Source of the DNA: an uncultured bacterium
Lineage (GTDB): Bacteria; Patescibacteriota; Minisyncoccia; Minisyncoccales; Minisyncoccaceae
Reading direction: 5' to 3'
Assembly: GCA_963802195.1 (NCBI GenBank)
Contig: CAWDHP010000003.1
Location: 19,456 to 43,455, forward strand
DNA length: 24,000 bases
Every line of letters starts with the position of its first letter. Within the stretch, counting starts at the first letter, position 1. This document shows, piece by piece, positions 3,187 through 21,556 of the stretch. A program made the translations under genes and the position numbers. The notes beneath the pieces were generated by a model that had not been told where the DNA came from, did no database searches, and saw nothing but the letters and a program-made list of their open reading frames with translations.

Positions 3187-3380
3187 GCTGTGATGGTCAG
3201 TCTGGAACCCCTAACCTTCAATCAGTGTAAGAGTTATTTGACTATTTAATATTGATTAATTTGAAGGGTCTCAGTCGGGATAAAATGAGACAAATGAGAC
3301 AGTATAAAAGGATATGTACCCTGTCTCGTGGACACTGTCTCGTTTTTTATAACTTACCATAATTTTTATCTTTGTGAAAG

Positions 3381-3418
3381 AATTGTAAGTAAAAAAAGAA
3401 GGAGATTTTTGATATCGA
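3381..3418 (-). terminator. intrinsic terminator after the radical SAM gene
   Basis: On the minus strand, AGGAGAT (3418-3412) pairs with ATCTCCT (3396-3390) and is followed by a TTCTTTTTTT tract. The same ATCTCCTTCTTTTTT tail recurs at 8769-8784. Confidence 0.6.
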
Positions 3419-3454
3419 AGTATCTCCTATGATTAACTTCGGAAGCTTAAAGCT

Positions 3455-4702
3455 TCAACCCTTAACTGTTTCCCACCCTTTTGGCAATGGCCAGAAAAGA
3501 TGGTTTTTCGCGTAAAATTTGAGATCGGCTAACGTGGGCGCGATGCGGTGGTTATTGAATAAGACCGATGTCTCAAATTCACAACCAACAGTTATTGCGA
3601 CATCTTCAGTCGCGACCTCATTTGGAGGTAACTCGACGAGGTACCCTTCCTCGGTCACGCGAATAGACAAAGGATGGTATCCCAACCATGTGAGGTATTT
3701 TTCAATCTCATCTGGATTAACTTTCCTCCACTGGCCGAGTTCTCCTGAGCGGGATAGGTTGTTGCGATTATATGCAATCGGCATACTGAACTCATCCCGA
3801 TACAATGTACCTGTATGCCGATGAACCCTAACATCGTACATGATTGAGGCACAGAGGACCGCCTTTTCAGCTTTTTCAGACAGCCAGTTTTTCATTTTGT
3901 AATACTGGTGTCCGCCCGGACTTGATTCTTCGTTTTGGTTGCCGTCGAGGAATCCTGTCTCGCGAAGCTTGTCGTTTTCGGGAGTAATGCCGAGATTTCC
4001 GATACTGCAACCACGATAGGTCAGAAATCTGATTCCCATCATTGCCAAATCGAAAATCGTTTCGACGCCCTTCATAACGTTATTATCGTTAAGTGGTCCA
4101 AGCATGACGGAAATCCGTCTTGGGGAAATTCCGGCATCGAGAAGCATCTGAAGACCCTCCAGTTGCTGTGGCGACTTAATCGGACTTCCCCTGAACTCTG
4201 GGCTGTCAGGCGTGATTGTAGTGCTAAACACTACACGAGGGTCATCCCCCCACGCTTCAAGCTGTTTTTGCCCGAATGGGGCACGGTGCAGAACGAAGAC
4301 TGGACTTTTGTGCGGAAATATCCGTAAAAATTCCGTAATTTCATTTACCTGCATGCTTCCGTCAGACCGAGCAGCCAGCATGATAATATCTCGGCCAGCC
4401 TTGAATAATTTGGACTGTTCAAGGAATCGTACCGCCTGTCTTGGCGTTGCAATCTTGCGGAGGCCTTTTCTGCCCTTCCCGATAGTATCAACAGAATTGT
4501 TGATCCATCGGTAATAACAGAAGTCGCACCCGATGGTGCATCCCATGATAAGGTCTCCATCCCAAGTGTACCGCCGTTTATAAAACGGAGCGGGGCAGAC
4601 TTGGCATTCTCCTTTCCATTCTGGCGGGGTGCCACCTAATAAAAGGTGTTCTCCGTTGACTATATCTGCCGCCCTTGCGGCTGAGAAATCTTCAAAAGAC
4701 AT
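3455..4702 (-). CDS. radical SAM enzyme, SplB/COG1533-like (spore-photoproduct-lyase-like family)
   Basis: MGCTIGCDFCYYRW contains CxxxCxxC in the GCxxGCxxCYxR context typical of SplB-like radical SAM proteins. AGGAGG lies 6 nt upstream of the ATG. The start abuts the upstream stop (TAAATG). Confidence 0.75.
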   Translation of the reverse strand: MSFEDFSAARAADIVNGEHLLLGGTPPEWKGECQVCPAPFYKRRYTWDGDLIMGCTIGCDFCYYRWINNSVDTIGKGRKGLRKIATPRQAVRFLEQSKLFKAGRDIIMLAARSDGSMQVNEITEFLRIFPHKSPVFVLHRAPFGQKQLEAWGDDPRVVFSTTITPDSPEFRGSPIKSPQQLEGLQMLLDAGISPRRISVMLGPLNDNNVMKGVETIFDLAMMGIRFLTYRGCSIGNLGITPENDKLRETGFLDGNQNEESSPGGHQYYKMKNWLSEKAEKAVLCASIMYDVRVHRHTGTLYRDEFSMPIAYNRNNLSRSGELGQWRKVNPDEIEKYLTWLGYHPLSIRVTEEGYLVELPPNEVATEDVAITVGCEFETSVLFNNHRIAPTLADLKFYAKNHLFWPLPKGWETVKG

Positions 4703-6457
4703 TTATACCTCCTGTCCCAAAATTGGGGCAATTTCTTTTTTCAATTTACGACCAAGACTAATGGTCTTCTTTGGAGTGATTCCGAACGTACGCATATAGG
4801 TCAAGCGACTAAGGCGTTCATCGGAATTATCCTTGCGGCCGTCTTTGCCGTAAAGAGCAGAAAGTCCATCATCAAGCATTTGGGCTGCGACACCATCCTG
4901 GTACGCAGCTTTGCAAATACTTTCAGAGCATCCTAATGCTTCAGCAATCATCAGCCGGAAAGAAGCCTCCTTCATCACTACCTTGCCCCAGAGTTCTGTC
5001 TGAGTCAGCTCGGTACTGAATTTAGGATTTTCTATTTCTACTTCAAGTCGAGCTGCGAGAATTACTTCACGAACGCGCTCCTCGAAAGTGGTTATACCGA
5101 GTTCGACGGCGATATTTCTTGCTCTTCCAAGGTCGTATGCCGCCTGCTCAATAGTTTGCCATACTCCGTTGATTACCCAGAACGCTGGCGCATAGTCACG
5201 GACTTCGTCCTCATCAATGAGGTCGTCCATGATTTTGAATGCCTTGCGCAGGTGTTCAACAAGCTGGCAGATTTCCTCAACATCCTTTTCGTTCCGTTTT
5301 CCAAGAACAGAGAGTTTTCTCACTTTCTTGGCGTAACTTCCGGAAGTCGGGACATCTATCCATGGCCGCGGGTTTTCAAGACTCTTTTGGTAGAAAGAGT
5401 CGATTGCCCCGACTTTTTCTAACCAATCCATTCTATTAACCTCCACTTTTGTAGCTCCGCGATTCTTTGCCACTTGCACTGCAGCTTGCTGCACAAGCTT
5501 CTTCGTGGCCTCGACTGATTTAGAGGCGAATATCCACGATAATACTTCGTGCATTCCGGAAATTAACCTGTCAGGAAGATTGATGTGGCAAGTATTACCT
5601 TCGTATTTTACCGAACACCCTGTGGTCTTGACGGTAAAGTCAGCAAAGCTCACCACATCAAGGGCGCCGATTTTGCGTAAGAGCTCCAGACGTTCCGAAT
5701 CAACAGAATCGTCAAAGTCCCCGCGCCTCTCAGCTTCCCTCTGTCGTTCATCTTCATCTCTCCTAACAGAGATAACGATTACTGGCCGTTGTAAAGCATA
5801 GCTCGCGTATATGATTTGTTCGCGAGACTTGATGCCATCAACAACCATGAACGGCGAATCGTCATTTACCGAAGAAACAAACCTGCGGGCGACAACAATT
5901 TTGTCTTTCGCCTCAACCTCTTCGGTGAAGCACTGGACATTGGTCCAATTCATTTCGCCATAACGGGATTCTATCTCCTGCTTTACATAGTCTCCCCATT
6001 TGTAGACGGAGAATCCGTCCATCTGGGAAAAAATGTTCCGCAGAAGTGTCTTCCCTGATGCGGGCAGTCCGACCAGTGCAATCATGTACTTATCAATGTG
6101 ATAAGTATCTTGCTCTGATACACTTTCTTTCGGCACAATCCCCTCTTTCTTCAAGAGGTAATTTTGATGTCGATACGCCAGCAATGTTTTTTCGTTGCCG
6201 ACATACTTTACCGGCCCCTTAATACCTAAACTCCTTAACGATTTCTCGACATGGAGCTGGGTTAAGGCCGTGGTCAAATTCCGGTCAAAGACAAGAATCT
6301 CTCCGTACTTCTTTTTTTGTGGAAAGTTCCACCAGGTTACTTCCCTCTGATCCATGCGAGAGAAGTCTGCAATTGCAACCTCCCATTCGGGAGAAAGAAT
6401 ATTGCAATTCAATAACTCCACGCCTGACTTGGCGATTAAAACCGCAAGGGTTTTCAT
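4703..6457 (-). CDS. fusion protein: unknown N-domain, P-loop nucleotide kinase (adenylate/dephospho-CoA-kinase-like) and a divergent polyprenyl-synthase-like C-domain
   Basis: Walker A in IALVGLPASGKT. The block VVDGIKSREQ...RRDEDERQREAERRGDFDD resembles small archaeal-type nucleotide kinases. The C-terminal MDDLIDEDEVRDYAPAFW (DDxxDxxxxR...P) and GVAAQMLDDGLSALYGKDGRKDNSDE resemble the two Asp-rich motifs of trans-prenyl synthases, with the second degenerate. I prefer the ATG at 6457 (GAGG 7 nt upstream) over the TTG at 6499 used by the ORF track. Confidence 0.6.
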   Translation of the reverse strand: MKTLAVLIAKSGVELLNCNILSPEWEVAIADFSRMDQREVTWWNFPQKKKYGEILVFDRNLTTALTQLHVEKSLRSLGIKGPVKYVGNEKTLLAYRHQNYLLKKEGIVPKESVSEQDTYHIDKYMIALVGLPASGKTLLRNIFSQMDGFSVYKWGDYVKQEIESRYGEMNWTNVQCFTEEVEAKDKIVVARRFVSSVNDDSPFMVVDGIKSREQIIYASYALQRPVIVISVRRDEDERQREAERRGDFDDSVDSERLELLRKIGALDVVSFADFTVKTTGCSVKYEGNTCHINLPDRLISGMHEVLSWIFASKSVEATKKLVQQAAVQVAKNRGATKVEVNRMDWLEKVGAIDSFYQKSLENPRPWIDVPTSGSYAKKVRKLSVLGKRNEKDVEEICQLVEHLRKAFKIMDDLIDEDEVRDYAPAFWVINGVWQTIEQAAYDLGRARNIAVELGITTFEERVREVILAARLEVEIENPKFSTELTQTELWGKVVMKEASFRLMIAEALGCSESICKAAYQDGVAAQMLDDGLSALYGKDGRKDNSDERLSRLTYMRTFGITPKKTISLGRKLKKEIAPILGQEV

Positions 6458-7148
6458 TCTAAACCTCGTAATCGTAAGTTGCCATGTTTCAGGCAACAAA
6501 CTAAAGATGTAAATCTCCAGATTGTTACCTGAAACTCTACCTATTTAATTTTCAAACAGCATCCTCCTGCTTCTCTCGGCTCCAATCTCTCCATTGGAAG
6601 CCGAGAGTATAGCAAGGAGGTTTCTGGAAACGAAGCGGGTTAAACTTCCTTTCCAGCCAATCTCCCTACTAGAAGACGGCAAACGATATTAGCCAGTTGA
6701 TAATCTTTTCATTTATACTCTCTCCAGTATGATGACGATTACCTAACATTCTTGCTAAAAGCTAATATCGGACAGGCAGTAATTGGTGTTTTACTGCTTT
6801 AGGACCTTAAGTCTATCACCATAATAGACTTTCGTTCCTTTGATTTTTAACAAAGAGCTATTCTTCTCGAAATTCTTCCGAGAAGATTTTTAAAGATTTT
6901 ATCTTTAACATATCTTTCCGCAAAAAAACGGCTGAGAAATCTCTTCAAAGGACAGACTCAAGATAGAATCCTTCCTTAAAAGAGATCTCCCAGCCGTTCG
7001 AATAAACAACTAGTATCTATTACTCCATTCGGAATGCAGACAGACCTCAGCCTGATTCCTTATCCCTTTCGGGAAAGAAGTAACGGGTCCATTATTTAAC
7101 CTCGCGGACGAGCGAAGAACTAACATCTAATTTAATGAACTCACTTAC
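6458..7148 (-). ncRNA. large structured leader RNA, copy A (paralogue of 10445-11180)
   Basis: About 690 nt between the promoter at 7155-7183 and the kinase-fusion ATG, with no conserved ORF. Hairpins are dense, including a long hairpin at 6929-6996 followed by U7. The core 6614-6846 aligns with 10575-10785 and shows compensatory stem changes. The 5' end is inferred from the promoter only. Confidence 0.5.
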
Positions 7149-7154
7149 ACGATA

Positions 7155-7183
7155 ACTATATACTACTATCTGCTTCTTGTCAA
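7155..7183 (-). promoter_or_regulatory. sigma70-type promoter driving leader A and the kinase-radical SAM operon
   Basis: Minus strand reads TTGACA (7183-7178), a 17-nt spacer, then TATAGT (7160-7155). Confidence 0.65.
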
Positions 7184-7190
7184 CCCCCAA

Positions 7191-7199
7191 TTATCCACA
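7191..7199 (+). promoter_or_regulatory. perfect DnaA-box 9-mer TTATCCACA, 7 nt upstream of the -35 element
   Basis: Exact match to the consensus TTATCCACA. The same 9-mer occurs at the same spacing at 11223-11231 and 11338-11346. Confidence 0.45.
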
Positions 7200-7200
7200 T

Positions 7201-7253
7201 CCTGCTTTCGTCCTTTTGGACTCATCAGCTCGGACACACATCCGAGGAGCAAG
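7201..7253 (-). ncRNA. type III hammerhead ribozyme (HHR-1)
   Basis: Minus strand reads CUUGC-UC/CUCGGA-UGUGUG-UCCGAG-CUGAUGA-GUCC-AAAA-GGAC-GAAA-GCAGG. The full CUGAUGA...GAAA core is present. Stems I and II are closed and stem III is open (CUUGC/GCAGG). Predicted cleavage is after C7247. Confidence 0.85.
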
Positions 7254-7317
7254 TGTAATTTATTTTTTTAAAAAATTACTAAAAAATTAACCCTACTATA
7301 CTGCCCAAGTAATTGGC

Positions 7318-8523
7318 TTAAACATTTTTTACTGTAAATCCAGCATTTTTGAATCCCTCAGCCAAGGACGTTGGTTCATCCTTAATCTGAATATCGTTAA
7401 GACCGAAGATCTTTTCAATCTCGACCTTGGATGGAGTAATGGGTGTGATTCCGTCCCATGGCTCCGTGCGAATGCCGTTGGCTACCCACCGTACATAGTG
7501 GTGGATTCCTCCGGCATTAGCGAGTACATAGGATGTTATTTCTCCATCCTTGTACTCTATCCACGCAGAGTGCCAATCGGGCGCTTCAACGATAGCTAGA
7601 ATACTCTCGCTGTTGAATGGTCTCTCGCAGGATTCCTTTATTCGGGTGATACCCGATTCAGAAATTTTCTCGAACCGGTAGCGCTTGCCACCACCCGGAC
7701 CGATGCAGAGAGATATTAATGCTTTCGTGCCAGGAATCAGTGTGCCAGCTTGCACACTGCTGACGCCACCGATCTTATCGCCCATGACGACGGGAATGGC
7801 AATGCCCCAGTTTTTTACGGTTTGCTCTATCGGTTGCCACTGTGTGAAGTGGTTAACCAGAACATTCATTTCGGGGCTGATTGCTTCCTCAAGTTCTTCT
7901 GCTAGTTTAATCGCGGACTGAACGTCCTCGTGAAGCTCTCCAGTAAACTGCTTTACAACTTCCGTTACCTCGGGATTATCATCAGTGGCGATTGTTTGGC
8001 AGAGTTCTTCGCGGGTCATTGCGACTGCGTTGAAACTCCTAGTCACAATGAGGTAGCGCTGACCGTAGCCTTTGTATGATCCCCCGCAGATGTTCACGAT
8101 GAACACCGATGGAGATTCAATATGCCACAGCTCATCAGTTCCGCCACCAATTCTACCGGCATCGCCGAAGGCATAAGAACCAGTGACTAACAGTTTAGCT
8201 TCGCCACCCTTGTGGACGACATTACCCTCTGTCCCACGGGTGTACGTTCCATACGTGTTTATTCGTATGAGTACACCGCGTTGGTTGGGGTTGCTTTTGG
8301 TCAATATGCAATGCTTCCTTTCCTCCCCAAAGAGGAAATATCCGACATCATCGGGTCCGGACGGTTGTTGTCCGGAACGATTAGAAATTCGGACTTCTTC
8401 AAGCCACCGGCCTCGGCCAGCCTCTCCCAAAGAGAACGGAATCTCCTGGGTCCTTCCGTGCATGTCAATTATTTTCATTCCTTTCACTCCATTCTTGCCC
8501 CTAAAGCGTATCTTCGTGGGCAT
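7318..8523 (-). CDS. hypothetical protein (386-401 aa), no recognisable family
   Basis: Long intact ORF in GC-rich cargo. The start is either ATG 8523 (no SD) or ATG 8478 (GGAGTGAAAGGA upstream). Gly-rich loops are present (GDAGRIGGGTD, CGGSYKGYG, GPGGGKRY). Confidence 0.6.
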   Translation of the reverse strand: MPTKIRFRGKNGVKGMKIIDMHGRTQEIPFSLGEAGRGRWLEEVRISNRSGQQPSGPDDVGYFLFGEERKHCILTKSNPNQRGVLIRINTYGTYTRGTEGNVVHKGGEAKLLVTGSYAFGDAGRIGGGTDELWHIESPSVFIVNICGGSYKGYGQRYLIVTRSFNAVAMTREELCQTIATDDNPEVTEVVKQFTGELHEDVQSAIKLAEELEEAISPEMNVLVNHFTQWQPIEQTVKNWGIAIPVVMGDKIGGVSSVQAGTLIPGTKALISLCIGPGGGKRYRFEKISESGITRIKESCERPFNSESILAIVEAPDWHSAWIEYKDGEITSYVLANAGGIHHYVRWVANGIRTEPWDGITPITPSKVEIEKIFGLNDIQIKDEPTSLAEGFKNAGFTVKNV

Positions 8524-8768
8524 GAATTATGTTTGCTCATTAAGAGCGTACAATTTTAAAATATTATTTAAGACTGTGCGCTCTCAACAAACTCTATTTA
8601 AAGAACTATTATCAATTAAATCAGCAGTGAACCGTAAAGCAATTAGCGAGGGGTTTGAATGTATTATATTCTGGAGAGAGATTAGAATATATCCAATACC
8701 TCTCCTGCTTTACGGATCGCTACTGATTGTTTCTCAATTCTGAATCCACTTTTATTAAAATGAACTCG

Positions 8769-8816
8769 GAAAAAAGAAGGAGATAATGTTTAAACATTTA
8801 ACGGGTCTCCATCTCC
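8769..8816 (-). terminator. intrinsic terminator after the P-loop NTPase gene
   Basis: On the minus strand, GGAGAT (8816-8811) pairs with ATCTCC (8784-8779). The inner palindrome AATGTTTAAACATT is followed by TTCTTTTTTC. The 5' arm overlaps the stop codon. Confidence 0.5.
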
Positions 8817-9403
8817 GTTATCAGCCAATCTGCAAACTGACTAATAATACCCTGATAGGGATCCTTTGGACCGTCTCGGTCCAAATTACAGATAATCCCT
8901 CGAATGGGTTCGGCAGAAAAATCCGCCGAAGATCCTACATTGTTATCAAGCGTCCCATCCGCCCGCTTGATAAGCCGAGACTCAAATAATGCGAGAGTCT
9001 CACACCCTTCTTCTTTGGCAAAATTCTGCCAAAGCTCATTCTCTTCTTCTTTCGAAGAAAGAAGAATAAGGTGCGTTGACCGCTTGAGAATCTCGGCATT
9101 CTCAGCAGTCCGTCTTCCCCCAAGATCTAGGAGGACCAAGGGAAACGATTTTCCCAAGTTCTCAATGGACTTCAGAGTGAAACCCATGAATTCTTGAGAA
9201 AATGCTCCTTTCCTCCGAATTTCAGAGACAAGGCGCGGGTCAGTCTCTGCTGACCACATACCTTCTCCATCGGGACATGCCCTTTGGAGAAAGACTCTCG
9301 TTGCCTTCCTTGCCAAAAGCTGACGATATAGCTCGGCAAGGAAGACTGACTTCCCTGAATGTGGAGGCCCTCCCACGGCCACCACCATTTTTTTAGTGGC
9401 CAT
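8798..9403 (-). CDS. P-loop NTPase of the type found fused to Csx3 (Csx3-associated AAA/kinase-like)
   Basis: Walker A in VAVGGPPHSGKS and Walker B in LVLLDLGG. AAGGAGG SD. The gene lies directly downstream of the Csx3 gene. The link to Csx3-AAA fusions is recalled from the literature, not searched. Confidence 0.65.
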   Translation of the reverse strand: MATKKMVVAVGGPPHSGKSVFLAELYRQLLARKATRVFLQRACPDGEGMWSAETDPRLVSEIRRKGAFSQEFMGFTLKSIENLGKSFPLVLLDLGGRRTAENAEILKRSTHLILLSSKEEENELWQNFAKEEGCETLALFESRLIKRADGTLDNNVGSSADFSAEPIRGIICNLDRDGPKDPYQGIISQFADWLITEMETR

Positions 9404-9462
9404 AGTAGCCTCCTTTAGTGCTTTTTATACTTTTGCACAAAAAGTTTTTTCATTCCCTGATT

Positions 9463-9765
9463 TTACTCAGGGAACGGTATTACATTTCCGACCTGCTGGT
9501 CGGGAGAGTGGGTGGCAACGACCACTGCGCCAAGGCGCGGATCGCGAACTGCCAACCACGGTGTGGCATGGGCAGCATGCACTAACATGCTGTATAGCCA
9601 TACCGGACCCCGTCCGTCAAGGACGATCGGGGTTTCTCCACCGAGCTCACCGAGCTCAGTGACCGCTTCCTGAGATTCCTGGGGAGTTGTTACTCCGCCC
9701 GGAATCTCGAATCCTACCACCCGGATGCCGTTAGCATCACGGGTGGAAAATACTGGTTTCGACAT
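9463..9765 (-). CDS. csx3: Csx3 (Crn3) family protein, distant-CARF ring-nuclease fold
   Basis: LDGRGPVWLYSMLVHAAHATPWLAVRDPRLGAVVVATHSP closely matches the block I recall from A. fulgidus Csx3 (SGRGPIWLHCFLAHKYHHTPFVAVYDPRLGAVVVQSHS). I prefer ATG 9765 (GGGAGG 9 nt upstream) over the TTG at 9792. Confidence 0.7.
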   Translation of the reverse strand: MSKPVFSTRDANGIRVVGFEIPGGVTTPQESQEAVTELGELGGETPIVLDGRGPVWLYSMLVHAAHATPWLAVRDPRLGAVVVATHSPDQQVGNVIPFPE

Positions 9766-9954
9766 TTTCCATACCTCCCGTTTCACCTTCAACGGGGACT
9801 TTGCTCTGCATCATCAAAAGGTGACTTTGATGATGACTCCCTTCATGGGAAGCGAGCTGACTACTTTTATAAATAATCAATTCGCTTTCCATAAAGCAAG
9901 AGTTAAATATTCAAACCTATTTTCCTTTTAATGAGCAACTTATATTTTACAATT

Positions 9955-10007
9955 CTGCTTTTCGTCCTTTTGGACTCATCAGCTCGGATACACATCCGAG
10001 AAAGCAA
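9955..10007 (-). ncRNA. type III hammerhead ribozyme (HHR-2)
   Basis: Minus strand reads UUGCU-UU/CUCGGA-UGUGUA-UCCGAG-CUGAUGA-GUCC-AAAA-GGAC-GAAA-AGCAG. The core is identical to HHR-1. Stem III is UUGCU/AGCAG. Predicted cleavage is after U10001. Confidence 0.85.
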
Positions 10008-10060
10008 TTTGAAGAGGAAGTTTTATATAGCGAGCCCTCTTCGTACCCGCTTTACCCTGG

Positions 10061-10444
10061 TTACCTTCCAGTCGGGAAAATAACCATTTTCCAGGGATCC
10101 TCCCTGTCTGAAACATAGACAGGACGGAATCCCTTCTCCTCTACGACCTTCTGAAAGGCCGGGAGGAGAAACCCTGCCTCTGGCGGGAAGTCCATTAGGA
10201 CCTCCCTCGTTGCCTCATCGGCAAAGAGGAAGGCCTCCTTCATGGCCCTTCCCAGCCAATCGCCGAAACGCTCTGCGCGCTCGACGATTTGTTGCCCTTC
10301 CACCACGTCCATGTGGCGGAAGAGAATCATTTCCTCCAGTTCCACCCGCAGGTGGACTGGAACTTCAGTCAGCGAAAATCGCTGGTGAAGTTTCTCCGCT
10401 CCCTCACGGGGGAGCGGGCTTACCCTTAAGATACTCTTCTGCAT
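10061..10444 (-). CDS. hypothetical protein (127 aa)
   Basis: GC-rich intact ORF. I prefer ATG 10444 (AAGGGGAG about 10 nt upstream) over the TTG at 10495. No recognisable motif. Confidence 0.5.
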   Translation of the reverse strand: MQKSILRVSPLPREGAEKLHQRFSLTEVPVHLRVELEEMILFRHMDVVEGQQIVERAERFGDWLGRAMKEAFLFADEATREVLMDFPPEAGFLLPAFQKVVEEKGFRPVYVSDREDPWKMVIFPTGR

Positions 10445-11180
10445 AATAATGACTCCCCTTCTTTTTCGGTAGAAGTAAACCGGTGCTTTTTCCAAGCAAC
10501 AATCTAGAGATATAAGTCTACAGATTGTTACTTAGAATGATTTTAAAATGAACCACTGACACTCCCTATCTCGTAAGGAGGTTTCTGGAAACGAAGTGGG
10601 TTAGGCCTCTTTTCCAGCCGATCTCCTTACTAGAAGAACGGTATACGATTTTTTAACCTTAGGCCATAACTCTCTCCAGACTTTCTTTGTCGCCTAAAAT
10701 TAATATATCGGACAGGCAAGCAATTGGTTTTTGCTGCTTTAGGACCTTGACCTATCACCATAATAGATCGCGTTCCTTTGATTTTGGTTTAAAGAACTAT
10801 ATCTTCTTTCTTGCGAAAGAAGGTGATGGATATGAGTCTTGTATTGTTTTAGCTCATTTCCATAACTTTCCTTCGTAATATATTGTAAAAGAGGGGGGAG
10901 ATTCAGAGTCCTAGGTGTAAACCCAAGGTTTAGGACGCTGTTCGGCAAGTCTCCCCGCTGCCGCTTCCGAATGGGTCTTCGGAAGAAAGTGGTAAAGATG
11001 ATACATATTCATCTCCACAACTTTCTTTCAAAAGAAAAAGGGGTAACAAATGTTGGGATACTGCATGAAAAGAGTACCTCAACACTTATTACCCCATAAC
11101 GGAATTAAAAGCGTTTATTGGCAATGCCTCTCTCCTTGCATTGACTTGGCTTATTTAATTTTTAATAACTTCATCCTAAC
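10445..11180 (-). ncRNA. large structured leader RNA, copy B (paralogue of 6458-7148)
   Basis: About 735 nt between the promoter at 11187-11215 and the ORF127 ATG. The core 10575-10785 is homologous to 6614-6846. Two long hairpins are followed by U-tracts (about 11036-11095 and 10895-10956). ORF-track ORFs in this region are not conserved in copy A. Confidence 0.5.
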
Positions 11181-11186
11181 AACTAT

Positions 11187-11215
11187 ACTATGACATACTA
11201 TCTATTTTCTGTCAA
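11187..11215 (-). promoter_or_regulatory. sigma70-type promoter P1 for leader B
   Basis: Minus strand reads TTGACA (11215-11210), a 17-nt spacer, then CATAGT (11192-11187). Confidence 0.55.
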
Positions 11216-11222
11216 GCTCCAG

Positions 11223-11231
11223 TTATCCACA
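11223..11231 (+). promoter_or_regulatory. perfect DnaA-box 9-mer TTATCCACA, 7 nt upstream of the P1 -35 element
   Basis: Exact 9-mer at the same spacing as at 7191-7199. Confidence 0.45.
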
Positions 11232-11301
11232 CCCTGATTTTTCTATGAATAACAAGGCTTTTCTTCTTTTCTGCCTCTCCTTTCTTTATCCTTACACCTA
11301 T

Positions 11302-11330
11302 ACCATAGCATAGTAGTATAATTATGTCAA
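11302..11330 (-). promoter_or_regulatory. sigma70-type promoter P2 (tandem with P1)
   Basis: Minus strand reads TTGACA (11330-11325), a 17-nt spacer, then TATGGT (11307-11302). Confidence 0.5.
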
Positions 11331-11337
11331 CACTCAG

Positions 11338-11346
11338 TTATCCACA
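11338..11346 (+). promoter_or_regulatory. perfect DnaA-box 9-mer TTATCCACA, 7 nt upstream of the P2 -35 element
   Basis: Exact 9-mer at the same spacing as the other two copies. Confidence 0.45.
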
Positions 11347-11451
11347 CCCTAGCTATCAAGTTTTTCAGTCTCCACTTTGTCTACATATGGGGTCTGGACT
11401 CCCTAGAGCTATTGCGTCATCCTTGTCCTTGAGATAATAAATAAAAACAAT

Positions 11452-12759
11452 ATGGAACGAATAATAAAAAGTATAAGTCAGTCCCCTATTCTTGATGCTC
11501 CAATCAAGTATTGTCTCTATGCTAGGAAATCGACTGAAGCGGAGGACAAGCAAGCTCTTTCAATAGAATCTCAAGTAAAGGAAATGTTATCTCTAGCCGA
11601 AAGAGACAACTTAGATATAGTTGAAATTAAAAGAGAATCGCATTCTTCAAAGGAAGTCGGACAAAGAGTAGTTTTCAACGAAATGATTAAAGAAATAAGA
11701 GAAGGAAAATATAATGGAATATTAACATGGGCGCCAGATAGGTTAAGCAGAAATGCTGGGGATCTAGGATCGATAGTAGATTTGATGGATCAGAAGCTTC
11801 TTATCGAAATAAGAACATACGGACAGAAGTTTACCAATAATCCAAATGAGAAGTTTCTTTTAATGATATTAGGCTCTCAAGCCAAACTAGAGAATGACAA
11901 TAAAGCAGTCAATGTTAAGCGAGGATTAAGGACTAGATGCGAAATGGGATTAAGACCAGGAGTTGCACCGACTGGCTATCTGAATGAAAAGCATGTTGAT
12001 AAGAAATGCCAATGCAGAATAGATTCTAAAAGAGCACCTATTATTAAACAGATGTTTGAAAAGGTGGCCAACGAGCAATGGAGCGGCAGGAAGATATTCC
12101 GATGGCTGATTGATATTGGATTCAAGACTAAAACCGGCAAGCCTTTAGTTCTTGCCAATATTTATCTCATCTTAAGAAATCCTTTTTATTATGGAGAATT
12201 TGAATACCCAATTAAAAGCGGTAATTGGTATATTGGTAAACATGTTCCGATTATAAATAAAGAGCTGTTTGATAAAGTGCAAATGACCCTCGGTGATAAT
12301 TTCATACCCAAAACAGAAAGCAAGGAATTCGCTTTTACCAAATTAATCAAATGCGGATATTGCGGATCAGGAATATCAGCTGATGAAAAGTTCAGAAAAT
12401 TAAAAAACGGCGGTACTAACCGTCATGTCTATTATTTTTGTACCAAGGCGAGAAATATTGATTGCAAAAATCAGCCGATAGATGAGGCAAACCTAATAAA
12501 CGAACTAGCAGAACTTGTAGACAAGATTGATTTAGATGAACTAGGGATAAGGGATAAAATTGAAAAAGAATTAATGAGATTTAATAAATTTAGAATCGGA
12601 GTGCTTGGGCATAAAAAAGAAGTAAGCAATTCAGATATTGATATCCGTAACTATGCTAAGTATTTATTAAAAGAAGGAACAATTACCGAAAAGCGAGAAC
12701 TCCTATCATTTTTAAAAAGTAAACTGGTATTAAAAGACAGAAAGATTATTCTTGGATAA
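11452..12759 (+). CDS. large serine recombinase (resolvase/invertase N-domain, recombinase domain and zinc ribbon)
   Basis: YCLYARKSTEAEDKQALSIESQ carries the catalytic Ser motif. Also present are GILTWAPDRLSRN and a C-terminal CGYCG...YYFC zinc-ribbon-like motif. The gene is AT-rich (line 12181-12240 has 17/60 G+C) and has no SD, so it is host-like, unlike the cargo. Confidence 0.85.
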   Translation: MERIIKSISQSPILDAPIKYCLYARKSTEAEDKQALSIESQVKEMLSLAERDNLDIVEIKRESHSSKEVGQRVVFNEMIKEIREGKYNGILTWAPDRLSRNAGDLGSIVDLMDQKLLIEIRTYGQKFTNNPNEKFLLMILGSQAKLENDNKAVNVKRGLRTRCEMGLRPGVAPTGYLNEKHVDKKCQCRIDSKRAPIIKQMFEKVANEQWSGRKIFRWLIDIGFKTKTGKPLVLANIYLILRNPFYYGEFEYPIKSGNWYIGKHVPIINKELFDKVQMTLGDNFIPKTESKEFAFTKLIKCGYCGSGISADEKFRKLKNGGTNRHVYYFCTKARNIDCKNQPIDEANLINELAELVDKIDLDELGIRDKIEKELMRFNKFRIGVLGHKKEVSNSDIDIRNYAKYLLKEGTITEKRELLSFLKSKLVLKDRKIILG

Positions 12760-12770
12760 GATTGCTAACT

Positions 12771-12799
12771 AAAAATCACTGGATAAACCAGTGATTTTC
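12771..12799 (+). terminator. intrinsic terminator after the recombinase gene
   Basis: AAATCACTGG (12773-12782) pairs with CCAGTGATTT (12788-12797) around the loop ATAAA. The stem is flanked by A and T runs. Confidence 0.6.
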
Positions 12800-12837
12800 A
12801 TGTATGCATCTCAGTCACCTGACTTAGCATAAGACGG

Positions 12838-12908
12838 CTGCGGGACTAGGATTCGGACCTAGATTGGGCGAGTCAAAGTCGCCAGTCCTACCGTTAGACG
12901 ATCCCGCA
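12838..12908 (-). tRNA. tRNA-Gln (anticodon UUG)
   Basis: Manual cloverleaf: acceptor UGCGGGA/UCCCGCA with the U1-A72 pair typical of bacterial tRNA-Gln; D arm GUCU-AACGGUA-GGAC; anticodon arm GGCGA-CUUUGAC-UCGCC; T arm CUAGG-UCCGAAU-CCUAG; discriminator G. CCA is not encoded. The T-loop reads UCC instead of the usual UUC. Confidence 0.8.
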
Positions 12909-16148: not shown

Positions 16149-16994
16149 ATGAAAACAATTTTAGAACACATTGGCAATACGCCATTAGTAAAAATAGAAA
16201 ATAACATCTTTGCTAAAATGGAAGGATTTAATCCTGGCGGTTCGATTAAAGACAGGATTGCACTAAACATGATTAATGAGGCGGAAAAATCAGGACTCAT
16301 CAAACAAGGAGATACTTTGATTGAGCCAACTAGTGGCAACACTGGAGTTGGCTTAGCAATGGTTGCGGCGATGAAAGGATACAAAGTTAAAATGATAATG
16401 CCTGAGAGTACCAGTAAAGAAAAGATAAAGATGGTCAAGATATTTGGTGGAGAAGTAATTTTAATGGAAAACTTAAGATACAGGAAGTTCGCTATTAATG
16501 ATGTGAAAGATATGGCTAAGATTGGAGAGAGACAAGTCTTTTTAAATCAATATGAAAATTTAGCTAATCCTGAATCACACTATTATGGAACAGCTGAAGA
16601 GATATTAAAACAGATGGAAGGCAAACAGATTGACTATTTCATCGCTGGCATGGGAACTGGTGGAACAATTACAGGAATTGGAAGAAAGTTAAAAGAAAAA
16701 TATCCCAATATTAAAATTATCGGAGTCCAGCCAGTTCAAAATCAAACAATCGAAGGATTAAGATCTCTTAAGGATGGATTCGTTCCAACAATTATTGATT
16801 TTGATTTAATTGATGAGATTTATGATCTTGAAGCAGAGAAAGCTTTAACTACCAAAGATGAATTAGCGAGAAAAGGAGTATTAGTTGGCCCTAGTTCGGG
16901 AGCAGCCATGTATATCTGTCGGGAAATACAGAAAGAACATCCAGAAGCGAATATTATCACCATCTTCCCTGACCGTGGAGAGAGATATCTTTAA
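16149..16994 (+). CDS. cysK: cysteine synthase (O-acetylserine sulfhydrylase; CysK and CysM not distinguishable)
   Basis: GNTPLVKI, the PLP-lysine motif NPGGSIKDRIA, EPTSGNTGVGLA and GMGTGGTITG. Confidence 0.85.
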   Translation: MKTILEHIGNTPLVKIENNIFAKMEGFNPGGSIKDRIALNMINEAEKSGLIKQGDTLIEPTSGNTGVGLAMVAAMKGYKVKMIMPESTSKEKIKMVKIFGGEVILMENLRYRKFAINDVKDMAKIGERQVFLNQYENLANPESHYYGTAEEILKQMEGKQIDYFIAGMGTGGTITGIGRKLKEKYPNIKIIGVQPVQNQTIEGLRSLKDGFVPTIIDFDLIDEIYDLEAEKALTTKDELARKGVLVGPSSGAAMYICREIQKEHPEANIITIFPDRGERYL

Positions 16995-17024: not shown

Positions 17025-18480
17025 ATGAAAATATATAATACTTTAACTAAAAAGAAAGAAGAATTTAAATCAATTAAAGACAAAGAAGTCGGAATCTACA
17101 CTTGTGGACCGACTGTCTACTGGTTTGCTCATATCGGCAACATGAGAGCCTACCTTTTTGAAGACACTTTAAAGAGAGTTTTAATATACAATGGATACAA
17201 GGTTAAGCATGTGATGAACATTACTGACGTTGGACATTTAACTTCTGATTCTGATTCAGGAGAAGACAAATTAGAGAAAGGAGCTAGGAAAGAAAGAAAA
17301 TCAGTTTGGGAGATTGCCCAGTTCTATACAGACTTCTTCAAGAAAGATTTAAAATCTTTAAATATTATTGATCCAACTATTTGGGTAAAAGCAACTGACA
17401 CTATCCAAGAGCAGATAGATTTGATTAAAGAGATGGAAAAGAAAGGATTCACTTACATCACTAGCGATGGAGTATACTTTGATACTTCTAAATTAGAGAA
17501 ATATGGAAGACTTATGGGGAGAAAGTGAAAGAACAGAAATGAAAGGCAGGATTGAAGAAGTAAAAGAAAAAAGAAACAAAGCCGACTTCGCTCTATGGAA
17601 GTTCAGTCCTAAAGATGAAAAGAGACAAATGGAATGGGAATCTCCTTGGGGAGTTGGTTTCCCTGGCTGGCACACTGAGTGTGTGGTGATGAGTGTAAAC
17701 AATCTAGGGATACCTTTTGATATCCATTGTGGAGGAATTGATCATATCTTTATCCACCACACTAATGAAATCGCCCAGGCTGAAGCCGTATACAACAAGC
17801 CAATGGCTAATTATTGGATGCACGGAGAATTCCTTAATTTAAAAGATGGGAAGATGTCTAAATCAGCAGGAACAATCATTACTCTTGAAACATTAAAAGA
17901 AAAAGGAGTCAGTCCCCTTGCCTATCGCTATCTATGTTTGAATACTCACTACCGAACTAAATTGTTTTTTAGTGATGAGAGCCTTGAGTTCGCTGAAACA
18001 AGCCTAAGCAAGCTTTACGAAAAAACAGTTGAACTATCTAGAAGTGAAAAGACACCCCATTCAAAGAAATATGAGGAATACAAAAAGAATTTCCTTGAAT
18101 TCATTAATGATGATTTAAATATTCCTTCTGCCCTAGCCTTAACTTGGGATATGATTAAGGACAAGAATATTACTGATTCAGAGAAATATGATTTGTTAAT
18201 TGATTTTGATAATGTCTTTGGTTTGAAACTTGCTTCAATTAAATCAGAAGATAATCTAACTGATTCAAAGTATATTATCAAAACAGAAAAAGATGGCATT
18301 CCTGTTTGGACTAGCGATACTAGTATTGTTCCTGAAGACATAATGAAACTAGTTGAAGCAAGAAACGAAGCAAGGAAGAACAAGGAATGGGATAAATCAG
18401 ATGAGGCAAGAAAAGAGATAGAAGAGAAAGGATGGCAAGTAGAAGATTCAGGAGAGAAGACAGTCATTAAGAAGAAATAA
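17025..18480 (+). pseudogene. cysS: cysteinyl-tRNA synthetase, interrupted by a single-base frameshift at the GGGG run 17516-17519
   Basis: The N-part has [15 protein letters not shown] (HIGH-type motif). The C-part has RNKADFALWKF, PGWHTEC and KMSKS. Two ORFs (17025-17528 and 17503-18480) are in frames 0 and +1. Deleting one G restores ...[20 protein letters not shown]... Confidence 0.85.
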
Positions 18481-20142: not shown

Positions 20143-20171
20143 TTGACGTTTAATTTGTTGTTTGCTACATT
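20143..20171 (+). promoter_or_regulatory. dnaB promoter of leaderless type
   Basis: TTGACG (20143-20148), a 17-nt spacer, then TACATT (20166-20171), followed by 7 nt before the ATG at 20179. Confidence 0.5.
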
Positions 20172-20178
20172 ATACTTA

Positions 20179-21556
20179 ATGAGTAGTGAAAATACAAATC
20201 TAAAAGTGCCCCCACAGGATATAGAAGCGGAAAAAAGCCTTTTAGGCTCTTTAATGCTTGATAAGGAAGCAATTACTAAAGTTGCTGATATTTTGCATGC
20301 TGAAGACTTTTACAAGAGAAATCACCAATACATCTATCAGGTGGTTGAAGATTTGTTTTCTCGTGGAGAGCCAATTGATTTAATTTCAGTTTCATCAAAG
20401 CTTAAAGAAAGAAATCAATTAGAGAATATTGGAGGAACCGCTTACCTAACTGAACTAATTAATACTGTTCCAACTGCCAGCCACGTAATGACCTATGCCA
20501 AGATTGTCCAAAAGAAAAGAATCTTAAGAGATTTAATCTCTGCTGGAACAGAAATATCTTTAATGGGCTATGAAGAAGAAAATGAATCTGATGATCTTTT
20601 GGATTCAGCTGAAAGAAGAATCTTCAGTATCACTCAAAAGAATCTAACTCAATCATTCTTACCAATCAAACCTTTCCTAGAAGAAGCTTTTGAAAGAATA
20701 GAAAGAATATCTAAACAGAAAGGAGCTTTAAGAGGAACTTCAACTGGATTTAACGGATTAGATTCCCTTCTCTCTGGTTTGCAGAATTCTGATTTAATTA
20801 TTCTTAGCTGCTAGGCCTTCAATGGGAAAATCAAGTTTAGCACTAGATATTGCCAAGAATGTTGCTTTAAAAGAAAAGAAGCCAGTTGGTATCTTCTCAT
20901 TAGAGATGAGCAAGGACCAATTAATTGATAGATTAATTAGTTCTGAATCAAATATTGACTCATGGAAGTTAAGACAAGGAATGCTTTCAACTGAAGGAGA
21001 TCAGAATGACTTTGTTTGTATCCAGCACGCCTTAGGCACTCTTTCTGAGGCTCCCATCTTCATTGATGACGCTTCTAGCTGTAGTGTTTTACAAATGAGA
21101 GCCATGGCCAGAAGATTACAAGCTAGTCATGGATTAGGTTTGATTATCGTTGATTATTTACAATTGATTGAGCCAAGCAACAAGATAATCAATAGTGTTC
21201 AACAAATTACTGAAATATCAAGACAATTAAAAGGATTAGCTAGAGAATTGAATATTCCTGTTTTAGCTCTATCTCAATTATCAAGAGCAGTAGAACAAAG
21301 AACTCCCAAGATTCCTAGACTATCAGATTTGAGAGATTCTGGTTCAATTGAGCAAGACGCTGATGTTGTTCTATTCATTTACCGTGAAGATGTTTACCAA
21401 GAAGAAAGTCCTCGAAAAGGAGTTGCTGATATTATTATCGCTAAACACAGAAACGGTCCTATCGGCAGAGTAGAACTATTCTTTGATAAACAAAGAGCCT
21501 GCTTCAGAAATATTGAAACGGGTCGTGATGCTTTTGAGGGAGATATTGGATTCTAA
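20179..21556 (+). pseudogene. dnaB: replicative DNA helicase DnaB, interrupted by a single-base frameshift near 20806
   Basis: The N-part has PPQDIEAEKSLLGSLML. The reading ...SDLIILSC-stop switches to the +1 frame, giving AARPSMGKSSLALDIA (Walker A). Removing a20806 restores DLIILAARPSMGKS. The C-part has IIVDYLQL and SRQLKGLARELNIPVLALSQLSR. Confidence 0.85.

Follow-up and report, generated by a model that had tools for sequence, protein, structure and literature searches.

A Crn3/Csx3 ring nuclease and its partner NTPase on an integrative island of a candidate phyla radiation bacterium, with no CRISPR-Cas in view

What might a Csx3 ring nuclease and its partner nucleoside triphosphatase (NTPase) do in a bacterium of the candidate phyla radiation (CPR), on a piece of DNA where no CRISPR-Cas system is in view? 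The question is raised by a 24-kb stretch (hereafter the window) from an uncultured member of the Patescibacteriota (assembly GCA_963802195.1, contig CAWDHP010000003.1), in which two adjacent genes on the minus strand specify a 100-aa Csx3-like protein and a 201-aa P-loop NTPase. A preliminary description, made from the letters alone, had proposed a split Csx3 and NTPase pair on a mobile island. We could uphold the Csx3 identity, the NTPase as its partner, the island and the lack of CRISPR-Cas in view, whereas the supposed novelty of the split, the ties of the pair to a neighbouring orphan gene and to ribozymes, and an anti-defence function fared less well. We show that the pair is co-transcribed from an integrative island beside a tRNA-Gln gene, in a genome related to that of a Minisyncoccales (CPR) bacterium; the role proposed for it is inferred from the identity and context of the two genes, which are documented first. 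In the searchable literature we found no description of such a CRISPR-less CPR setting for the pair, of the recurrent link reported below between Csx3 and a triad of radical SAM, kinase-like and polyprenyl-synthase-like proteins, or of the pair in operons punctuated by hammerhead ribozymes and carrying an unclassified leader.

The csx3 gene lies at positions 9463–9765 on the minus strand. Its most likely start is the ATG at 9765, with a Shine–Dalgarno sequence (GGGAGG) 8 nt upstream, whilst an alternative TTG further upstream, at 9792, would give a product of 109 aa. In profile searches the 100-aa protein scored above the curated cut-offs of both Pfam PF09620 (E 8.7e-23; 80.4 bits, cut-off 21) and the NCBIfam equivalog model TIGR02579, 'ring nuclease Crn3/Csx3' (82.2 bits, cut-off 55.4), which bears out the identity first suggested for it. 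It also matched five Csx3 models of PADLOC (E 1e-19 to 1e-25) and, more weakly, two fusion models, and phmmer aligned it to the Archaeoglobus fulgidus Csx3 structures 3WZI and 6YUD (E 5e-14). In the latter protein (AF1864, AfCsx3), residues G45, R46, H57, H60, D69, R71 and H80 were shown to matter for the binding and cleavage of cyclic tetra-adenylate (cA4) (Athukoralage et al., PMC7371418); upon alignment to 3WZI, all seven are kept in the window protein, which includes the stretch DGRGPVWLYSMLVHAAHATPWLAVRDPRLGAVVVATHS. The resulting residue pattern, GRHHDRH, is shared by the window protein and eight CPR loci, and is identical to that of CRISPR-linked copies. The ratio of non-synonymous to synonymous substitution rates (dN/dS), estimated against two diverged relatives, is 0.11–0.16 and indicates purifying selection. 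By its sequence the protein belongs to the Crn3/Csx3 ring nucleases, its active site is complete, and it is predicted to be catalytically competent. It thus has the core sequence and all cA4-relevant residues in common with AfCsx3; the two differ in that the archaeal protein, lacking an NTPase partner, stands alone as an accessory to a type III-B system, and in that the activity of the window protein is a prediction.

The NTPase gene follows at 8798–9403 on the same strand, beginning with the ATG at 9403, 5 nt after AAGGAGG. The two reading frames lie where the preliminary description had placed them; the gap between them, given there as 60 nt, is 59 nt by coordinates. The protein has a Walker A motif GGPPHSGKS and a Walker B motif VLLDLGG, and GGPPHSGKS, CPDGEGMW and LDLGG are invariant in its family. 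Its best PADLOC match was PDLC01515, a stand-alone model labelled Csx3 (E 2.6e-38), followed by PDLC01059, 'AAA-Csx3' (E 9.6e-33), and by PDLC01045, 'Csx3-AAA', of which it covers positions 107–251 of 286, that is, the C-terminal half (E 3.7e-32). This last match (4e-32 when rounded) sustains the view that the protein is a Csx3 partner and not a housekeeping NTPase. The Csx3-AAA and AAA-Csx3 fusions are known as clusters 35 and 67 amongst the type III accessory genes (Shah et al., PMC6546367); as the PADLOC matches fall in these families, the window NTPase is the usual partner of Csx3. With a dN/dS of 0.09–0.12 against the same two relatives, it is likewise under purifying selection.

Such partners are labelled 'AAA', and in the 2025 ring-nuclease literature the NTPase fused to Crn3/Csx3 is still 'of unknown function'. 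Pfam and NCBIfam gave only sub-threshold P-loop matches, with every Pfam AAA model far under its cut-off, and a profile of the NTPase found nothing significant amongst the Protein Data Bank (PDB) sequences. An AlphaFold2 model built from 108 homologues (mean predicted local distance difference test, pLDDT, 88.9) had as its best PDB neighbours in Foldseek SRP54/FtsY, HypB, MinD, GPN-loop proteins, NifH and MobB, at moderate similarity (E ∼2e-4; template modelling (TM) score 0.4–0.6). Membership of the AAA+ superfamily was therefore rejected: the AAA models lie far below cut-off and the fold neighbours belong to the SIMIBI class. As the neighbours of the predicted fold are SIMIBI-class NTPases, the literature label 'AAA' looks loose and inaccurate for this partner, and the modelled fold class points to a nucleotide-dependent dimerization switch, not to an AAA+ motor.

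Is the separation of the two domains into two genes a peculiarity of this locus? The domains are kept apart by a stop codon, the 59-nt spacer and a second ribosome-binding site, so that the window pair is not one polypeptide. Amongst the best 120 clusters of NTPase homologues, ∼110 are stand-alone proteins of 181–244 aa, and the remaining 10 are fusions of 313–321 aa with PF09620, ∼53 % identical. When we considered the 25 closest loci in species-representative genomes, a separate csx3 gene stood just upstream of the NTPase gene in 18 and the two were fused in three; in the other four, a contig end cuts the locus or Csx3 is undetectable. Split pairs in which the NTPase has its own ribosome-binding site recur in many genomes, and the cyanobacterial pairs next to type III CRISPR-Cas also occur in the split form. 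Most Chloroflexota carry the reverse fusion (AAA-Csx3); across other lineages the two domains are fused in both orders, and they are always adjacent. Given the purifying selection on both genes and this recurrence, the split is an established arrangement, not a frameshift artefact or a sign of decay. It had been called undescribed, yet no other form is as common among the closest relatives, and a stand-alone NTPase model (PDLC01515) already existed. The two proteins are thus new members of a known family, and their split is ordinary.

The window pair comprises the same two domains as the known fusions. In Csx3-AAA proteins (cluster 35, e.g. CYB_0599, and Synechocystis Slr7080) the N-to-C order is also the same, the N-terminal half of the fusion profile matching the window Csx3 and the C-terminal half the window NTPase; AAA-Csx3 (cluster 67, Caur_2269) has the domains reversed. 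What sets the window apart from both is its two genes with a 59-nt spacer, with no type III cassette nearby. Furthermore, the fusions are found in cyanobacteria and Chloroflexota with Csm and Cmr genes as partners, whereas the window pair belongs to a CPR bacterium and is accompanied by the triad.

The pair resides on a GC-rich integrative island of ∼9.6 kb (3195–12835), with a GC content of 0.40–0.51 against ∼0.33 in the host. A large serine recombinase (11452–12759, plus strand), with Resolvase, Recombinase and Zn_ribbon_recom domains and a match to PHROG 95, 'integrase' (E 3.5e-64), closes the block together with a chromosomal tRNA-Gln(UUG) gene (12836–12908, minus strand; ARAGORN and Rfam), whose 3' end the island abuts and which is its probable attachment site. 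All cargo genes other than the recombinase lie on the minus strand. In the order of transcription they comprise two promoter modules (11350–11169), a structured leader A, a 127-aa gene, a first hammerhead ribozyme (HH1), csx3, the NTPase gene, a 401-aa gene and a second hammerhead (HH2); then follow a third promoter module, an internal terminator, a second leader B, a 598-aa protein and a 415-aa radical SAM enzyme.

We found the same element at the same site in the Minisyncoccales metagenome-assembled genome GCA_049302695.1 (L002/L010; loci fetched for comparison are given L numbers). The islands are 86–88 % identical and the host flanks 75–81 %, and the island end ...GACTGACCATCACAG is common to both. 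The L002 island is bracketed by two direct copies (6586–6656 and 16304–16372) of a 70-nt sequence from beyond tRNA-Gln, whilst the window (∼3195; 12767–12840) has only the tRNA-side copy left. The window has also lost the Bro-N gene that is present after the L002 island. A search by way of the exact deaminase protein found no empty site in a relative. The mobile nature of the island, as proposed at the outset, is borne out by the recombinase at one end, the contrast in GC and an island identity to L002 that exceeds that of the flanks. In another genome (L004–L006, L011) the same cargo, again GC-rich relative to its flanks, lies between the PBP2 gene and greA and lacks the recombinase and the 127-aa gene; the cassette is therefore conserved at two chromosomal sites, and GCA_027341205.1 is among the assemblies that have it. 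Several of the bins are probably contaminated, and the contigs binned as 'Smithella' (L011) and 'Pseudomonadales' (L012) are short and CPR-looking. Across the 24-kb window we found neither a CRISPR array nor a cas gene, in keeping with the claim that no CRISPR-Cas is in view.

In order to discern what accompanies the pair elsewhere, neighbouring families were ranked in 14 non-CPR and 11 CPR loci, a sample of tens of loci and not of hundreds. In the non-CPR set (cyanobacteria, Myxococcota, Desulfobacterota and Gammaproteobacteria) the top neighbours were Csm3 of type III, Cas7 of type III-D and Cmr4, along with WYL regulators. In the CPR set neither scan returned a Cas effector within the 25 most frequent neighbour families; there, bpMoxR/AAA_5 and von Willebrand factor A (vWA) proteins were found in five to six of the 11 loci, and a divergent TrmB regulator, a serine recombinase and a GNAT protein in three each. 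The combination of bpMoxR and vWA marks ternary conflict systems, in which Csx3 has been given as an effector domain (Kaur, Burroughs, Iyer, Aravind 2020, eLife). The likeness is close in the five to six CPR loci where the pair directly precedes these two genes, and ends at the window, which has neither a MoxR nor a vWA gene and carries the triad in that place. In five CPR examples (L007, L013/L090, L015, L023, L091) genes for bpMoxR, vWA and a protein of 530–770 aa come after the pair; a divergent TrmB regulator and a non-coding stretch of 0.6–0.9 kb precede it in L013/L090 and L091, and the non-coding stretch ahead of it measures 1.4 kb in L007. Away from CRISPR, Csx3 and its NTPase seem to recur in a second architecture, that with bpMoxR–vWA. 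Comparison of the two sets shows that the split pair is a type III CRISPR-Cas accessory in non-CPR lineages, and that it is instead attached to MoxR–vWA modules or to the triad in loci from the CPR and from metagenomes of hot springs and other environments. As the neighbours are non-Cas and GRHHDRH is retained, this CPR lineage of the pair appears to have left type III CRISPR-Cas with its active site kept.

The triad itself consists, in the window, of two genes. The first holds a P-loop kinase-like and a polyprenyl-synthase-like part (4703–6457, minus strand) in a single ORF of 598 aa (4703–6499), named from its motifs (Walker A GLPASGKT; DDLID) and from Pfam matches that are weighed below. 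These two parts are separate overlapping or adjacent genes of about 350 (352) and 242 aa in L002, L004, L092 and L093, and the window ORF is either a real fusion or the product of an indel. The second gene (3455–4702, minus strand) specifies a 415-aa radical SAM enzyme with the CxxxCxxC motif GCTIGCDFCY. It belongs to a small uncharacterized family of 69 clusters, all of them unnamed or 'hypothetical' save two with generic labels; its dN/dS is ∼0.06 and its AlphaFold2 model has a pLDDT of 95.6. A viperin-like identity was considered and rejected, there being no viperin among the 50 matches listed, in which generic cores reach a TM of ∼0.4. There is a loose likeness to pairs of a prokaryotic viperin and a nucleotide kinase, in that a radical SAM gene stands beside a P-loop kinase-like gene in a defence-like setting; the window differs from these in a radical SAM model unlike viperin, in having no PADLOC match and in the additional prenyl-synthase-like protein.

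The contexts of the radical SAM family, together with 79 loci obtained in a metagenome scan, reveal the triad as a tight three-gene module in either order. Profile searches placed Csx3 and/or the NTPase 0.2–4 kb away from it in L092, L093 (the same as L107/L108), L096, L098, L103, L104, L135, L137 and L143, mostly with the NTPase preceding Csx3 and in fused or split form. Eight of the closer triad loci have 3 kb or more of sequence on each side, and five of these contain the pair. Moreover, when 150 neighbours of 22 triad loci were scanned with Pfam in an unbiased manner, Cas_csx3 ranked first (five members), no other family exceeding three, and no Cas effector was found. Since the association recurs over diverged lineages and in two domain orders, it suggests a functional link between Csx3 and the triad; so far as sequence comparison goes, such recurrence would be hard to explain otherwise.

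What, then, might the pair do? We give an even chance to the reading that Csx3, gated by the NTPase, cleaves or senses cA4 or a related oligoadenylate, and that the two together form the regulatory arm of a conflict cassette which works independently of CRISPR and has the triad as its enzymatic arm. The argument is one of analogy, in that Csx3 accompanies type III systems, which produce a signal, as an accessory and would stand in the same relation here to the triad or to MoxR–vWA modules. Csx3 dimers would bind and cleave cA4 or a closely related oligoadenylate. The catalysis requires head-to-tail stacking of dimers (PMC7371418), for which reason a dimerizing NTPase would be a natural gate: by nucleotide-dependent dimerization the partner could gate or reset the stacking, making the pair a tunable off-switch or sensor of a nucleotide signal. 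Within a CRISPR-independent, defence-type conflict system the triad would then act as enzymatic arm and the pair as regulatory arm. At the level of RNA, the hammerheads would split a long transcript into separately stable pieces (the 127-aa cistron, the segment of csx3, NTPase and variable gene, and the next unit), with expression controlled by the structured leaders and by promoters that carry a DnaA-box-like element.

Several observations weigh against this reading. The main gap is that no cyclic-oligoadenylate (cOA) synthase was found in the window or in any of the CPR or triad loci. Csx3 or the NTPase occurs in only about a third to a half of the triad loci, so that the pair would be accessory to the triad, not obligatory. 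The enzymes of the triad are themselves loosely placed: the two Pfam matches of the 598-aa protein, AAA_18 (E 5.6e-5) and polyprenyl_synt (E 6.4e-4), are both under the curated cut-offs, and Foldseek matched the radical SAM model to generic cores alone (SkfB, NifB, SuiB, LipA and RlmN, TM ∼0.4) and to no characterized subfamily. In the C-terminal Csx3 domains of AAA-Csx3 proteins (L093, L098, L104, L137, L143 and many Chloroflexota, L036–L089) the H57/H60/D69 pattern is apparently gone, divergent patterns such as GKLRQQR and GRMAQGH standing in its place, although the alignment of these domains is uncertain. By their residues, such domains may bind a ligand without cleaving it and, as some triad-linked Csx3 domains seem to be devoid of the catalytic histidines, ligand binding is suggested as the common property. 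The gating itself is deduced only from the predicted fold class and from the fusions. Finally, 24 kb of the host genome were viewed; a type III system was not seen there and could lie elsewhere.

Even so, three leads come out of the comparison. The partner NTPase resembles a dimerizing SIMIBI switch more than an AAA+ motor; recurrent non-Cas partners exist in the form of MoxR–vWA and of the radical SAM/kinase-like/prenyl-synthase-like triad; and an intact ring-nuclease active site is held under purifying selection in the CPR, a group said to be mostly CRISPR-less. They offer testable routes to the role of the NTPase and bear on cOA-type signalling outside type III CRISPR in the CPR. A more far-reaching version of the proposal, which we regard as doubtful, would see in the triad, Csx3 and the NTPase a hitherto undescribed conflict system that works by nucleotide signalling, independently of CRISPR, both in the CPR and amongst the organisms of hot-spring and other environmental metagenomes. 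In it, the triad would make or respond to an adenylate-derived molecule that Csx3 senses and destroys, and expression would be set by the hammerheads and by the leader, possibly a riboswitch for the same signal.

The rival that survives best, though we consider it rather unlikely, is the anti-defence function already put forward in the preliminary description: the ring nuclease and its NTPase helper would be cargo with which the island destroys the cA4 of a recipient's type III or similar system, in the manner of AcrIII-1, and so establishes itself. The pair does sit on a compositionally foreign, recombinase-bearing island, and the three CPR loci with a serine recombinase nearby fit as well. 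Csx3 also degrades cA4 in vitro at rates comparable to those of AcrIII-1 (review PMC8284326). A functional analogy with AcrIII-1/Crn2 (DUF1874), a cA4-degrading enzyme on mobile elements, is thus possible, yet that family is unrelated to Csx3 in fold and in descent, and it is common in viruses, whereas a scan of the 2.9 million viral contigs of IMG/VR returned no relative (0) of the NTPase. What weakens this account further is that the pair or the whole cassette also occupies non-mobile chromosomal sites next to conflict systems and without a recombinase (L004, L007, L013/L090, L091), and that hosts of other phyla have the pair as an accessory within their type III loci. Moreover, CPR bacteria reportedly carry CRISPR-Cas only rarely, and selection for an anti-type III function in such hosts would on that account be weak.

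Next to this stands an ordinary role at a distance, in which the pair serves, as a ring-nuclease accessory, a type III CRISPR-Cas locus or another cOA-producing system that lies elsewhere in the genome. It is compatible with catalytic residues identical to those of CRISPR-linked copies and with the knowledge that csx3 genes can also be found away from cas cassettes and close to type I loci (PMC6546367). This account, too, we consider unlikely, as the neighbourhoods speak otherwise: type III genes head the list in the 14 non-CPR loci and no Cas effector enters the 25 top families in the 11 CPR loci, where the pair has recurrent non-Cas partners of its own.

A third alternative involves the ribozymes. 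HH1 (9955–10007, minus strand), situated after the 127-aa gene and before csx3 in the order of transcription, is a type III hammerhead with the intact core CUGAUGAG...CGAAA and three stems, assigned by hand (I, CUCGGAU/AUCCGAG; II, GUCC/GGAC; III, UUGCUU/AAGCAG), with cleavage predicted after U10001. Against Rfam RF00008 it scored 21.3 bits in a shifted register, not reaching the gathering score of 48.5; it is conserved in L002 and degenerate in L004. HH2 (7200–7254, minus strand), 3' of the 401-aa gene and of the same type and core, was found with RF00008 in a local search at 34.1 bits (E 2.3e-5), also below the gathering score, and in L004 its stem III has changed in a compensatory way, from CUUGC/GCAGG to CCUAC/GUGGG. 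Each has a complete type III hammerhead core with three stems, of which I and II are closed and III is open, and from these self-cleavage is predicted. A circular RNA arising by excision between HH1 and HH2, with a ligation that restores a hammerhead, was examined by hand and rejected, as the 5' stem III strand of HH2 and the 3' stem III strand of HH1 fail to pair with each other.

Hammerheads of this kind, with GUGU-type stem I loops, also close modules at the 3' end elsewhere, in CPR as well as metagenome loci. They follow the fused Csx3–NTPase gene in L015 and L098, the MoxR–vWA genes in L015 and the triad in L098 and L104, and they are also present where Csx3 is far off or absent (L023, L043, L052, L095); for this reason we regard them as an operon feature of CPR genomes and not as the Csx3-specific partner that had been suspected. 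The ones recorded lie at 10426 and 13833 in L015, 19452 in L023, 13329 in L043, 13336 in L052, 2481 in L095, 7158 and 14538 in L096, 2941 and 7771 in L098 and 9985 in L104, and the density of GUGU-loop hammerheads is ∼1 per 30 kb of the CPR sequence examined. In the searchable literature we found no paper tying hammerheads to Patescibacteria. It could be imagined that the 2',3'-cyclic-phosphate and 5'-OH ends left behind by hammerheads are substrates for Csx3 and the NTPase, as Csx3 was first described as an Mn-dependent deadenylase, as hammerheads bracket the segment of csx3, NTPase and variable gene, and as one directly follows the fused gene in L015 and L098. This, however, is very unlikely: the same type of hammerhead follows the triad, MoxR–vWA and unrelated genes, with Csx3 kilobases away or missing (in L104 as well as in the four loci above), most Csx3–NTPase loci, including all cyanobacterial and other non-CPR ones, have no hammerhead, and in L004 HH1 is degenerate whilst the pair is intact.

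That the pair is a decaying and functionless leftover of a lost type III locus, an idea for which the want of cas genes nearby is the sole support, can practically be dismissed in view of a dN/dS of ∼0.1 for both genes, an intact active site, promoters, strong ribosome-binding sites on both genes and conservation across many CPR lineages.

As a by-product, the comparison brought to light a family of hammerhead-punctuated CPR operons with an unclassified structured leader. Leader A, of ∼350 nt (10480–10830, minus strand), and leader B, upstream of the triad operon (6480–6870, minus strand), are ∼73 % identical, and no Rfam family matched these ∼350-nt sequences. Each contains a hairpin, R1 (10558–10642 in leader A and 6597–6681 in leader B), of the form UAAGGAGAU...CUGGAAA-[stem, loop YUAACC]-UUUCCAG...CUCCUUA, with compensatory changes in 12 of 21 pairs. 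A covariance model of R1 had matches ahead of Csx3 or the triad in seven further loci (L017, L023, L054, L091, L095, L096 and L100), and no match in the cyanobacterial or Chloroflexota loci. The leader with its R1 hairpin could be a new cis-regulatory RNA. The 3' strand of R1, ACCUCCUUA, resembles the anti-Shine–Dalgarno end of 16S rRNA and the 5' strand, UAAGGAGAU, a Shine–Dalgarno sequence.

Operon 1 is headed by two tandem promoter modules (11169–11350, minus strand; 11284–11350 and 11169–11235), each with TGTGGATAA followed by TTGACA-17-TATGGT or CATAGT. The module of operon 2 (7137–7203, minus strand) adjoins HH2 and has TGTGGATAA at 7191–7199 and TTGACA-17-TATAGT, a promoter with 11 of 12 consensus positions and the best of the region. 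In all three modules TGTGGATAA stands 8 nt upstream of a near-consensus promoter of the TTGACA-17-TATAGT type; it is the exact reverse complement of the DnaA box TTATCCACA, and its three copies compare with 0.14 expected. The GTGGAT... sequence that comes after HH2 is also found behind the hammerhead in L004 and L095. Terminator-like hairpins with T-runs were read by eye between promoter module and leader, at ∼11040 and at ∼6925–7000 (minus strand); an automatic terminator scan returned one nearby hairpin (11018–10992) and not the other. These hairpins could serve in attenuation, or they could terminate separate small RNAs of ∼130–220 nt.

The two remaining cargo genes stand apart from the system. 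The 127-aa gene (10061–10444, minus strand), the first cistron of operon 1, starts with the ATG at 10444 after AAGGGGAG; its product matches no Pfam, NCBIfam, PADLOC or PHROG family. It is also called in L001 and L002, and as its deletion from L004 shows it to be dispensable, it was rejected as a component. The 401-aa ORF (7318–8478, minus strand), whose probable true start is M16 (386 aa), homologue matches beginning at residue 16, occupies a variable cargo slot between the NTPase gene and HH2 that holds a 213-aa gene in L004 and genes of 174 and 233 aa in L002. It again has no match to a Pfam, NCBIfam, PADLOC or PHROG family, and Pfam found nothing on ten of its multidomain relatives. This protein had been described as an orphan tied to the pair, but it has 151 representative clusters of relatives, which are solitary CPR genes without a hammerhead or leader hairpin, and none of the 174 other loci fetched has a homologue; as a component of the system it was rejected as well. 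No GGDD-type cyclase motif was seen by eye in either protein.

In the host flanks, cysS (17025–18480, plus strand) and dnaB (20143–21556, plus strand) are each broken into two ORFs, the latter inside the Walker A region. These breaks are frameshifts or assembly errors and call for caution with single-base features of the window. At the opposite end, a nucleotidyltransferase (Polbeta/NTP_transf_2) and HEPN gene pair of toxin–antitoxin-like appearance lies at 689–1686 on the minus strand, and a similar nucleotidyltransferase/HEPN pair adjoins a homologue of the 401-aa protein in L174.

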